Assembly (NCBI GenBank): GCA_051251855.1
Contig: JBPOGI010000002.1
Coordinates: forward strand, 672,001-736,000
Source of the DNA: Roseibacillus sp.
GTDB lineage: Bacteria > Verrucomicrobiota > Verrucomicrobiia > Verrucomicrobiales > Akkermansiaceae
Direction: 5' to 3'
Length of the DNA stretch: 64,000 bases
Each line of letters begins with the position of its first letter. The stretch's first letter is position 1. A program made the translations under genes and the position numbers. This document shows positions 23,998 through 40,400 of the stretch, piece after piece. The notes under the pieces were generated by a model. It was not told the origin of the DNA. It searched no databases and was given only the letters and a program-made list of their open reading frames with translations.

Positions 23998-25869
23998 ATG
24001 AGGACATTTCCTTGGGTAGAAATGGAGATGTTGAAGCGAAAAGAATTTTTAGGCTGTTTGTTGCTGGGGTGGTCTCAGTTGAGTGGGGAGCAGATTTTGG
24101 TGGAGGCAGAGTCGTTTGATTCTCGAGGGGACTGGAAGTTGGATACGCAGTTTATTGAGCTGATGGGGTCGCCTTATCTTTTGGCGCATGGGATGGGGAC
24201 TCCGGTGGGGGGAGCTGAGACTCAGTTTACGGTGAAAGAGGGCGGGGAGTATCAGGTGTGGGTGAGGACGATTGATTGGTCCGAGCATCTGGGCCGTGCG
24301 GGTGGGGCGGGGAGATTCAGCTTGCAGGTTGATGGGAAGGAACTCGGCGGCGAGTTGGGTGCGGGGGAGTCGGATTGGTCTTGGGAGGCTGTTGGCTCGG
24401 CGACGCTGGAGGCGGGTGAACGCAAGATGAGTGTGAAGGATTTGTCGGGTTTCAATGGGCGCTTTGATGCGGTGTTTTTGAGCAATGAAGAGGGTGTTGT
24501 TCCTGAGGATGACTCGGCGATTTTGCCAGAGTGGAGGCGGGAATTGTTAGGGTTGTCGGAGACGCCCATTGAAGAGGATGGCTATGACCTTGTGGTTGTG
24601 GGTGGGGGCTATGGGGGGATGGGAACGGCGATTTCGGCGGCGCGTAATGGTTGCAAGGTGGCGCTGATTGAAAGCCGAGCGGTGCTGGGTGGAAATGGTT
24701 CTTCTGAGGTGCGGGTGTGGGCGATGGGGGAGCTTCCTCCATCGGAGTATCCTTTGGCGGATATCATTAGGGAGTTCATGGATGAGGCTGAGGCTTCGCC
24801 GGCTCCAGCGAGTCAATTTGGCGATGCGAAGAAGGAGGCTTTGGTTAAGAAAGAGGGGAACATTTCGCTGTTTCTCAATCAGCATGCGTTCGAGGTTGAG
24901 ATGGAGGGAGAGAAGATTGTGGCAGTTCATGGTCTTGATACACGGAGTAGTGAGGTGCGCCGTTTTAGTGCGCCTCTTTTTGCGGATTGCACGGGCCATG
25001 GTTGGATTGCGGTGAAGGCGGGGGCGGATACGCATATGGAAGAGAAAGGCCGTATGGGGATGAGCAATATGTGGATGTGGGGAAATGCGGAGAAGGAGGT
25101 TTCATATCCGCAGGCGGATTGGATGTTGGAACTCACTGAGAAGGACTTTCCTTTCCCGGTTCGCTTTCATGGGCAGTGGTTCTGGGAGGGTGGTTTTGAC
25201 AAGCATCCAATCGATGATTTGGAGGAGATTCGTGATTGGAATTTGTTGGCTGTTTATAGTTCGTGGAATGCAATGAAGAACAAGGGTGCGTATGCAAAGA
25301 GAGACCCCTCGAAGGCTGGCTTTGCGAAGGCACAGTTAACTTGGTTAGCTCATATCGGTGGCACGCGCGAGACGCAGCAGGTTTTGGGTGATGTGGTTTT
25401 GAATGAGGCCGATATTTTGGAGAAGAGGGAGTTTCCAGATGCGTGCGTGTTGACGACTTGGTCTATCGACTTGCACTACCCGCAGGAGAAGTATCTTCAG
25501 GCGGCCCCGGATCGGCCTTTTATCTCAAAGGCGGTTCATAATAAGGCGATTGACCGTAAGATTGGATATCCTATTCCTTACCGCTGTTTTTACTCGCGGA
25601 ATGTTCCCAATCTATTCACGGCGGGGCGCAATGTGAGTGTGACGCGGGAGGCGCTGGGGACGATTCGGGTGATGAAGACGATTGGGATGATGGGCGTGGT
25701 CGTGGGCAAGGCTGCTGCGATTTGTCGGGTGAAGGATACCGACCCGCGTGGGGTTTATGAGGAGTATCTGCCGGAACTGAAGTTCATGATGAGGCAGCCG
25801 GGGGAGACGCGGTATGAGGATTTGGATAAGCTGAAAGTGGCGCTAGAGGCGGCGGACAAGAAGAGTTGA
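23998..25869 (+). CDS. Exported FAD-dependent oxidoreductase (FAD_oxidored/PF12831-like)
   Basis: Signal-like N-terminus; DLVVVGGGYGG, LGGNGSSEVRV, DCTG, YPIPYRCFYS. True start may be a few codons downstream. Confidence 0.88.
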   Translation: MRTFPWVEMEMLKRKEFLGCLLLGWSQLSGEQILVEAESFDSRGDWKLDTQFIELMGSPYLLAHGMGTPVGGAETQFTVKEGGEYQVWVRTIDWSEHLGRAGGAGRFSLQVDGKELGGELGAGESDWSWEAVGSATLEAGERKMSVKDLSGFNGRFDAVFLSNEEGVVPEDDSAILPEWRRELLGLSETPIEEDGYDLVVVGGGYGGMGTAISAARNGCKVALIESRAVLGGNGSSEVRVWAMGELPPSEYPLADIIREFMDEAEASPAPASQFGDAKKEALVKKEGNISLFLNQHAFEVEMEGEKIVAVHGLDTRSSEVRRFSAPLFADCTGHGWIAVKAGADTHMEEKGRMGMSNMWMWGNAEKEVSYPQADWMLELTEKDFPFPVRFHGQWFWEGGFDKHPIDDLEEIRDWNLLAVYSSWNAMKNKGAYAKRDPSKAGFAKAQLTWLAHIGGTRETQQVLGDVVLNEADILEKREFPDACVLTTWSIDLHYPQEKYLQAAPDRPFISKAVHNKAIDRKIGYPIPYRCFYSRNVPNLFTAGRNVSVTREALGTIRVMKTIGMMGVVVGKAAAICRVKDTDPRGVYEEYLPELKFMMRQPGETRYEDLDKLKVALEAADKKS

Positions 25870-38470: not shown

Positions 38471-39475
38471 TTATTGGCCCATGGCGGCGGTCCAGCCAAC
38501 GGCGGTGAGTCCGACGAAGACGAAGAGTCCAATCGCTAACCAGGCGATGAACTTGGGTTTCATGATGGTGGAGTAGAGAAAGAGGAGCTTGACGTCCATC
38601 ATGGGGCCAAAGACGAGGAAGGCGAGGCGGGCTGCGGTGCGCGCGGCGGCGGGTGGGGCTAAAGTCGCAGCGATGAAGGCATCAGAAGTGCTGCAGAGGC
38701 TGAGCAAGAAGGCGAGCGCCATGAAGGCGGCGGTTTGCCCGAGGGCGGAGCCTTCCATGGATTCGAGCCATTCGGCTCCGGGGGCGATGCCGACGTTGAA
38801 GAGGGCGGTGATGATGACGCCAATGGTGAAGTATACACCTACGTCGGTGAAATCCTTGAGGGCCGCGCGCATGGAGAGGACGACACGGTTCTGTCCCTCG
38901 CTGCCGTGGTGATGATCGTCGTGCTCGTGATGATGGTCATGGTCGCAGTCTTTGTGGTCGCAGTCGTGGTGAGGGTGTTCTTTCTCCTTCTTGGTGTCCG
39001 CGGGCAGTACTTTAGGCTTGAGGATTTTGTCCATGGGAATGCGGAGGACAATGAGACCGACAAGGATGGCGGCGAGGTAGCCGAGGAGGACGCGGGAGAA
39101 GGTGAAGAACTCGGCACGCTCGGACCAGGTCTCGAAGTCGGGGAAGGCATTCCAGGTCGAGAAGATGGTGATGGGGTTCACGATGGGCGCGGCCAGCATA
39201 TAGGCGAAGGCGCAGCTCACAGGGAGGCCTTTGGCGACGAGACGACGAATGACGGGGACGACGGCGCACTCGCAAACGGGGAGAATTAAGCCGAGGAGGC
39301 CGGAGACAAGAACGGCGGCTGTCTTGTTCTTAGGGAGCATCTTTTCCATCGCTCCGGCGGGGAGGTAGACCCCGAGAAAGCCCGAGAGAAGGGTCCCAAG
39401 CAGGATAAAGGGTGCTCCTTCAAAAAGGATGGATTTGAAGGCGATGGCGAAGTTGGCGAAGTCGTCAGGGGACAC
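38471..39475 (-). CDS. DUF318/ArsP-family permease with a His/Asp/Cys-rich loop
   Basis: EGAPFILLG, PVCECAVVP, MLAAPIVNP, LSLCSTSDAF, FLVFGPMMDVK; loop HPHHDCDHKDCDHDHHHEHDDHHH. Confidence 0.88.
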   Translation of the reverse strand: MSPDDFANFAIAFKSILFEGAPFILLGTLLSGFLGVYLPAGAMEKMLPKNKTAAVLVSGLLGLILPVCECAVVPVIRRLVAKGLPVSCAFAYMLAAPIVNPITIFSTWNAFPDFETWSERAEFFTFSRVLLGYLAAILVGLIVLRIPMDKILKPKVLPADTKKEKEHPHHDCDHKDCDHDHHHEHDDHHHGSEGQNRVVLSMRAALKDFTDVGVYFTIGVIITALFNVGIAPGAEWLESMEGSALGQTAAFMALAFLLSLCSTSDAFIAATLAPPAAARTAARLAFLVFGPMMDVKLLFLYSTIMKPKFIAWLAIGLFVFVGLTAVGWTAAMGQ

Positions 39476-39763
39476 GCTGAGGAGGAAACCAGAAATGAGA
39501 GTAGAAATGCGAGCAATAACGAGTGTGAGTCTTATTGGCGCGGGGTTTTAGCCATCAGGGAGAGTAGAAAGTTTCCCAGTAAATCCTCAGGAGTTGTTTT
39601 TCATGTAATTATTTTGTTTTAAGTTGGTTGCGTTCTTTTTGTTGCCTTGTTTGGGCTTTTGGGAAAGCCCTTTCGGTGACCGATCTGTGTTCAATTCTCT
39701 GGAATAGTTGCGGCAACTGACTGATGTGGTAGGTTTTGACTGTTCTTAGATGAACAAACTACA

Positions 39764-40339
39764 ATGAAACTAAAATTCGTATTTACGATGATGGCTGCTA
39801 GCGGTCTCTTCGTTGCGCCTGTTTTTGCTGACCATCATGGTGAGAAAAAGGCTGCAACAGAGGCATCAGCAGAAGGTTCAGTAGCGGCCTACGTGGTCGC
39901 TGCTTCTGGCGGCGGGTGAGGCGCTGCAGGAAAGGTCAGTTCGGCCTTGAAAAGTCAGGAAGGTGTCAAAACCGTCATTCTCTCCGGTCTCCGTGCCACA
40001 GTCATCATGGATGACGGCGCAGCTCTAGATGAAGCGAAGGTGAAAGCCGCCATCAAAGGAAAGAAGATGGAGTTCGTTTCCATGGAGAAGACCCAGATTA
40101 CTCGCCCTGTAGCGGCCTATGAGCTCGTGGTGAGCGGCGCTACATGAGCAATCAAAAATGAAAAGGCCCGTGTGGCCTTGGAAAAATTGGACGGAGTTTC
40201 CGGTGCGTTTGTGAATAACAACATCGCGCTCCACTTCTCAGAGGAAACCGAACTTGATGAGAAGCTTGTTGCTTCTGCTATCAAGGAGTTTGGAATGAAG
40301 GTGAAGAGCACCAAGAAGCTCGAAGCATTGCCATTCTAG
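39764..40339 (+). CDS. Candidate double-selenocysteine secreted protein with tandem HMA/MerP-like domains (191 aa; in-frame UGA at codons 52 and 128)
   Basis: One frame from ATG 39764 to TAG 40337-40339 with TGA at 39917-39919 (SGGG-U) and 40145-40147 (SGAT-U); signal peptide; SECIS-like hairpin after each UGA; terminator after the TAG. Confidence 0.82.
39932..39948 (+). promoter_or_regulatory. SECIS-like hairpin 1
   Basis: AAGGTC-AGTTC-GGCCTT, 12 nt after the first UGA. Confidence 0.7.
40163..40179 (+). promoter_or_regulatory. SECIS-like hairpin 2
   Basis: AAGGCC-CGTGT-GGCCTT, 15 nt after the second UGA. Confidence 0.72.
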
Positions 40340-40360: not shown

Positions 40361-40400
40361 TGAGAGGCCTGTCGCATCGTGCGGCAGGCCTTTCTTTTTT
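40361..40400 (+). terminator. Intrinsic terminator
   Basis: GAGAGGCCTGTCGCA-TCG-TGCGGCAGGCCTTTC followed by a T-run. Confidence 0.85.

Follow-up and report, generated by a model that had tools for sequence, protein, structure and literature searches.

An unannotated Roseibacillus gene for a predicted exported tandem HMA protein with one probable selenocysteine per domain

Among described proteins of the HMA fold, CopZ, MerP, and the tandem HMA domains of Bacillus subtilis CopA (PDB 1p6t and 2rml) keep a CxxC loop in each domain, those of CopA being cytoplasmic parts of an ATPase. HMA-type proteins that bear selenocysteine (Sec, U) are already known. Table 1 of a 2026 inventory (PMC13188914) includes a cation-transporting ATPase with a UxxC motif and the family UxxU_metal_bind (NF041115), entered there as a putative mercuric reductase with two Sec. 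The MerT/CopZ fusion-like selenoprotein NF045683, a membrane transporter like the ATPase, also has Sec within or next to a metal loop of the HMA/CopZ type, and PMC2398784 enters, without detail, a MerP selenoprotein from GOS. Here we describe a gene within a 64,000-nt stretch of Roseibacillus sp. DNA (the window) whose predicted product shares with NF041115 an HMA-like domain, Sec in the ligand loop, and two Sec per chain, but has a signal peptide and distributes its Sec over two domains, one in each, where NF041115 consists of a single 74-position domain whose UxxU loop carries both Sec. None of the 119 families in Table 1 of the inventory has this tandem, one-Sec-per-HMA architecture, and the literature covered (including 10.1101/2022.07.06.499078, PMC2398784, PMC12013277, PMC13745706, PMC13326102, and PMC4807772, with bioRxiv supplements, BSepDB, and subscription journals outside its scope) contains no description of it in the portions available; Table S9 of PMC4807772 holds one hypothetical protein with a Cys homologue that is not identifiable from the table. 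The tandem double-Sec HMA family is, in this scope, missing from the selenoprotein catalogues checked.

The gene occupies 39764..40339 on the forward strand, from an ATG at 39764 through in-frame TGA codons at 39917-39919 (codon 52) and 40145-40147 (codon 128) to a TAG at 40337-40339, and would encode 191 residues, none of them Cys. A first-pass annotation of the window had proposed this hidden frame, its freedom from Cys, and its internal repeats, all of which hold. It had also stated that the open reading frame track shows only a 66-aa fragment; that piece is listed, together with 51- and 55-aa pieces of the same frame, which are all that remains of it under table 11. An identical run of 11 bases opens both repeats, at 39881 and 40109, giving an offset of 228 nt (76 codons); the halves share 17/76 residues and align profile to profile with a probability of 98.5 (E 3e-15). 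The stretch from Sec to the first helix is one residue shorter in domain 1 than in domain 2. One unconserved Cys occurs in the domain region of 4/38 homologues. No paralog of the gene was found in the source genome, where a weak second match shares the signal region only, and no longer fused form was found among 8000 longer candidates, which is weak evidence.

Seven aligned upstream regions share conserved blocks that mark a probable sigma-70-type promoter at 39708..39735 (+), absent from a consensus scan, with a -35 element TTGCGG (39708-39713), a 16-nt spacer containing TG, and a -10 element TAGGTT (39730-39735). The one match of the consensus scan (39736-39765) runs into the ATG and was discarded. 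The same seven regions showed no conserved palindrome or operator-like site of the kind expected for metal regulation. Beyond the TAG, as noted at first pass, is a terminator-like element (40362..40400, +) made up of a hairpin at 40362-40394 with 15 pairs, 9 of them G-C, and a T run. Contigs from 3 runs of 2 studies, most of them derived from relatives, together cover 39753-40338 but no flanking sequence, and one of 608 nt includes both UGAs. A single run is recorded as RNA, and its coverage is of the first UGA only; dissimilar flanks would not align. The coverage is a weak hint of transcription.

Both TGA codons are conserved throughout the family. In a set from which duplicate loci and one unrelated match had been removed, all 38 distinct homologous genes, read as DNA, have TGA at both sites (39917..39919, motif GGG-U-G, and 40145..40147, motif SGAT-U-A), spaced by 75-78 codons. 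Conservation of the coding frame continues past both sites under purifying selection, with dN/dS against six close relatives of 0.03-0.30 before, between, and after the TGAs (2/18 comparisons were saturated). Full-length matches were present in 18 of 61 related genomes at identities down to 32%, all with two TGAs. When 401 genomes of the order were sampled, some match was obtained in 37 and a full-length one in 28, the latter again all with two TGAs, and 6/6 metagenome loci retrieved with a protein-level pattern that omits the codon have TGA twice. Homologues 62-81% identical occur in records named Roseibacillus persicicus (81%), uncultured Roseibacillus, and Verrucomicrobiota MAG. A phylum-wide search of 401 genomes, a sample with few carrier genera, returned only the source genome and one ordinary HMA protein.

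The source genome contains selA, selB, selC (tRNA-Sec), and selD, all above curated cut-offs, and its selD has an in-frame TGA of its own. The only tRNA with a TCA anticodon found by ARAGORN is called tRNA-Sec. Among relatives, the tandem gene is present in 18/30 selA-positive and 0/31 selA-negative genomes, although these genomes are kin and not independent; a deep profile did not find it in four selA-positive genomes (G005, G024, G027, and G056). TGA also serves as a terminal stop, in lepA and in 6/38 family genes, which is at odds with an alternative code (table 4/25) in which TGA is unused as a stop. The first-pass annotation had argued the same from lepA, which does end in TGA, and had given a single position, 25869; a TGA triplet stands at 25867-25869.

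Each TGA is followed by a hairpin with a 6-bp stem and a 5-nt loop. Hairpin 1 (39932..39948, +; loop AGUUC) begins its stem 12 nt and its loop 18 nt past the UGA, and hairpin 2 (40163..40179, +; loop CGUGU) begins them 15 nt and 21 nt past. Over the 38 genes, a mean of 5.66 of 6 positions pair in hairpin 1 and 5.95 of 6 in hairpin 2, compared with 3.93 ± 0.13 and 3.86 ± 0.13 after synonymous randomisation (300 rounds of codon re-drawing; maximum 4.29). G occupies loop position 2 in 76/76 hairpins, as part of GU at positions 2-3 in 38/38 copies of hairpin 1 and 34/38 of hairpin 2. Across the 76 hairpins, a given stem position can be filled by several pair types, as in compensatory change, and degenerate codons are frozen within the hairpin (e.g. 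Arg is CGT in 20/20) and variable outside it. Hairpins of the same shape follow the UGA of fdhA and selD in the source genome. Hairpins 1 and 2 fit the shape of the SECIS consensus as given in PMC13188914 (loop of 3-9 nt, stem of 4-16 bp, G as the first or second loop base with G/U after it, and a distance of 16-37 nt to the UGA). Of its energy limit of -7.5 kcal/mol, hairpin 2 (-8.7) and the 44-nt region of site 1 (-8.6) fall on the passing side and isolated hairpin 1 (-6.7) does not. Because the 44-46-nt hairpin regions are no more stable than shuffles (z 0.67 and -0.92), the case for SECIS elements is a comparative one.

Database copies of the protein at first appear to contradict Sec. Of 16 aligned homologues, 14 have Trp at the covered sites, one has Cys at both, and one has Cys at site 2. 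The Trp copies derive from contigs of about 0.7-3.2 kb, and one 90% cluster mixes 6 members that have Trp with 4 that end exactly before that residue. The best explanation for Trp in these copies is a gene caller that applied code 4 to TGA, and we rejected Trp as the residue at both sites; this argument is indirect, as no DNA locus exactly matched a Trp protein (best 80%). A separate clade of five full-length proteins, available as protein records only, has Cys at both sites. Whether UGA is conserved or alternates with Cys was a check proposed with the first-pass annotation, and it has a double answer: TGA in 38/38 genes and Cys/Cys in the separate clade. These Cys/Cys orthologs and the SECIS hairpins are the strongest evidence for Sec and had been missed at first pass, when Sec was suggested as the probable reading of UGA; none of the grounds on which that suggestion was to fall (conservation ending at the first UGA, missing Sec machinery, non-Cys residues in homologues) was borne out. 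From the sequence comparisons, both UGA codons are almost certainly decoded as Sec by the ordinary SelB/SECIS route with one hairpin each, and the gene is strongly supported as a real, unannotated double selenoprotein. A 208-aa database protein (P0093) showed weak similarity to the Cys clade and had no Cys-loop motif, and P0018, P0028, and other repetitive matches were treated as composition noise.

The product is predicted to be exported, as claimed at first pass. Residues 1-22 (39764..39829) resemble a signal peptide and are followed by a low-confidence Ala/Glu-rich linker, with low pLDDT over residues 1-38; by a simple heuristic of our own, distinct from a trained predictor, 35/38 homologues have such a start (basic n-region and hydrophobic stretch), and one miss is a cut at a contig end. 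A few homologues have a lipoprotein-like Cys. AlphaFold2 models (mean pLDDT 84 and 89.6; pTM 0.72 and 0.76, the latter despite the 38-residue low-confidence N-terminus) contain two beta-alpha-beta-beta-alpha-beta domains, at residues 39-113 (39878..40102; pLDDT above 90) and about 116-191 (40109..40336; modelled core 117-185). Each matches HMA domains with Z 9-10, domain 2 superimposing on the ZntA N-domain (1mwz) with Z 9.8 and an rmsd of 2.0 over 70 aligned residues. No solved structure was found to match both domains together, which does not show a new arrangement; superposition of the whole model on the CopA tandem was poor (TM 0.31, rmsd 14.9). The top structural matches include rice integrated HMA domains, and HMA folds without metal function exist.

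At the level of profiles, the family aligns with the CopA tandem HMA domains (E 1.7e-10) with Sec opposite the first Cys of the CxxC loop and no counterpart of the second, bearing out both the HMA fold and the ligand position proposed at first pass. Across the 38 genes there is no Cys at U+2 to U+5 (0/38) and no conserved second ligand (Cys, His, or Met) at these positions; three database proteins retain Cys at U2+4, and Thr stands at U2+3 in 26/38 genes, with no such motif at site 1. The protein belongs to the HMA superfamily by fold and homology and lacks its two-ligand CxxC. It reaches no Pfam or NCBIfam cut-off, with 17.2 against the gathering score of 24.8 bits for the HMA model PF00403, 13.6 against 92.55 bits for MerP (TIGR02052), and 22.8 against 95 bits (E 7.7e-5) for its best NCBIfam match, NF041115. 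NF045683 does not match it and matches single-domain kin weakly. The 468-position model of MbdU (NF045648), a double selenoprotein that binds metal, has no match in the source genome at E <= 1, and the tandem protein has no CU dipeptide.

Single-domain kin of the tandem protein, reached via weak matches and inspected at 40 loci, are exported HMA proteins of the same order that pass or approach the Pfam HMA cut-off. They share with it a signal peptide, the fold, and, in the Sec forms, Sec at the first ligand position followed by a similar in-frame hairpin, but have one domain and keep the second Cys, as CxxC, UxxC, or UxxxC. SCO1/SenC lies beside nine distinct CxxC loci and beside 0/12 Sec-form loci; a CxxC HMA gene with SCO1/SenC is likely a copper-delivery cluster. 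One of the nine (L085) additionally adjoins HupE/UreJ and a TonB-dependent receptor. The single-domain Sec forms comprise eight UxxC loci, three UxxxC loci (L077, L080, and L105), and a further one (L104), and the four scanned reached no NCBIfam cut-off. Among 12 selA-positive relatives without the tandem gene, 6 carry a single-domain Sec-HMA gene, and two genomes carry both kinds.

In a midpoint-rooted tree of 76 domains built from a short alignment (tandem domains from 18 of the 38 genes and from 3 Cys-clade members, plus 34 single domains), the tandem domains group together (98/90), apart from the SCO-linked single-domain clade and split into domain 1 (99/89) and domain 2 (98/83). As each of the two domain clades also holds the Cys forms, one old duplication would account for the tandem. 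The first-pass annotation had considered two independent nonsense mutations at the same ligand residue unlikely; recoding stands, but the tree suggests that a single inherited codon was probably duplicated along with its domain to give the two TGAs.

We favor, with a probability of about 0.5 for the whole statement including function, an exported double-Sec tandem HMA protein that serves as a periplasmic carrier or buffer of a soft metal, most plausibly Cu(I). A stand-alone gene, both of whose UGAs are almost certainly recoded through SelB with a hairpin each, would yield a protein that, after export and signal cleavage, consists of two HMA domains descended from a single ancient duplication, with Sec at the first CxxC ligand position of each and no second ligand. 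In binding a soft ion, the two selenolates would stand in for the lost CxxC pairs: they could come together between the domains (Se-M-Se), or each could join with a partner-protein thiol at hand-over. The fixed spacing of the sites, the loss of both partner Cys, the retention of both Sec, and the switch of both to Cys together suggest that residues 52 and 128 act jointly; the pTM of 0.76 was counted on the same side. The choice of copper follows from the link of the CxxC kin to SCO and from the source genome, which has SCO and no other exported HMA detected (in particular, no single-domain one was found there). This link to copper is by ancestry only, given that the tandem clade lies apart from the SCO-linked clade. 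Export, metal binding, the choice of metal, and the two-Sec geometry are what we infer here. More tentatively, and as something we think doubtful, U52 and U128 may meet as one two-coordinate Se-M-Se site with all-Sec ligands from two HMA domains, in a natural metallochaperone that arose by duplication and loss of both partner Cys and handles Cu(I) or Hg in the periplasm of Verrucomicrobiales.

The neighborhood speaks against a metal carrier, as do the missing second ligand and operator palindrome. Pfam assigned the 69 immediate flanking ORFs of 38 loci to unrelated housekeeping genes, and none is a SCO, copper, or mer gene. In the window, an ArsP_1 permease with a His-rich loop lies at 38471-39475 (-), divergent from the tandem gene. 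Only 4 close loci have ArsP_1 next to the gene; we do not count it as a partner, and beyond this lineage-limited neighbor nothing supports a role in arsenic handling.

The absence of metal-linked neighbors and the loss of the CxxC pair would both accord with a periplasmic redox selenoprotein, in which the Sec pair cycles as a diselenide or reacts with peroxides or oxidised thiols, serviced by the exported Trx/TlpA-like selenoproteins of the genome, with the HMA fold a mere scaffold. The Thr at U2+3 in 26/38 genes resembles the UxxT of redox selenoproteins in Table 1 of PMC13188914, and several Prx-, Trx-, and TlpA-like TGA genes of the source genome have the same hairpin. Site 1, however, lacks a UxxT-type motif, the fold is not thioredoxin-like, and the closest kin retain metal-type CxxC/UxxC loops, some of them SCO-linked, so that we consider the redox role unlikely, if worth weighing.

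Somewhat further from what we expect is that the protein, rather than carrying copper for delivery, acts constitutively in the periplasm as a sink that takes up toxic soft metals (Hg, methylmercury, or Ag). Sec has a very high affinity for Hg, the protein has weak profile similarity to MerP/MerTP models, and the gene stands alone with its own promoter. Yet no MerA exceeded the cut-off in any of the 61 related genomes (0/61), which would leave bound Hg without a known route of reduction, and mer genes are absent among the neighbors; we judge such a sink to be improbable. Hg resistance through a mer system is disfavored because of the same lack of MerA. That the Sec residues are cargo of a selenium storage or delivery protein accords with strict co-occurrence with selA and with two Sec in a small exported protein, but two Sec per 170 aa make a poor store, and retention of both positions in the Cys/Cys clade points to chalcogen chemistry and not to Se content, making this a very remote prospect. 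Hardly credible is a decoding of UGA as Trp or Cys, or its use as a true stop leaving a pseudogene or three small peptides, for in spite of Trp at both sites in most full-length database copies, this reading is opposed by the TGAs of all 38 genes, the mixed 90% cluster, the use of TGA as a stop, and the sole TCA-anticodon tRNA (called tRNA-Sec), and leaves the SECIS hairpins and selA dependence unexplained.

The ligand arrangement, one Sec per HMA domain in an exported protein with no partner Cys, is new to the catalogues checked, while the recoding mechanism itself is ordinary. Databases carry the tandem protein as fragments or with false Trp, so current annotation is wrong. The CxxC, UxxC, and UxxxC single domains and the U/U and C/C tandems form a natural series with which what selenium contributes to a metal-binding loop can be tested directly, using a small soluble protein.

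The source genome is selenoprotein-rich, as it has further TGA-plus-hairpin genes, namely a Prx-like (C8:303832), two Trx-like (C11:42440 and C1:1584111), a TlpA-like (C11:99365), and an fdhA gene (C1:1403243), all on the forward strand. Outside the window, at C6:417091 (+) of the same genome, an FG-GAP-like frame of 614 codons, a TGA, and 226 codons carries a hairpin of that type with a perfect 6-bp stem; Table S9 of PMC4807772 includes ASPIC/FG-GAP candidates that resemble it. In a selA-positive relative, a match to pyridine nucleotide-disulfide oxidoreductase has two in-frame TGAs (G053:C138:23736-25133, -). The source genome also contains a tight cluster of ten tRNA genes (C10:114076-115599), several of whose anticodons are duplicated elsewhere in the genome, and a second tRNA called Trp(CCA) by ARAGORN (C1:686953-687039) that, at 87 nt, is longer than the ordinary tRNA-Trp.
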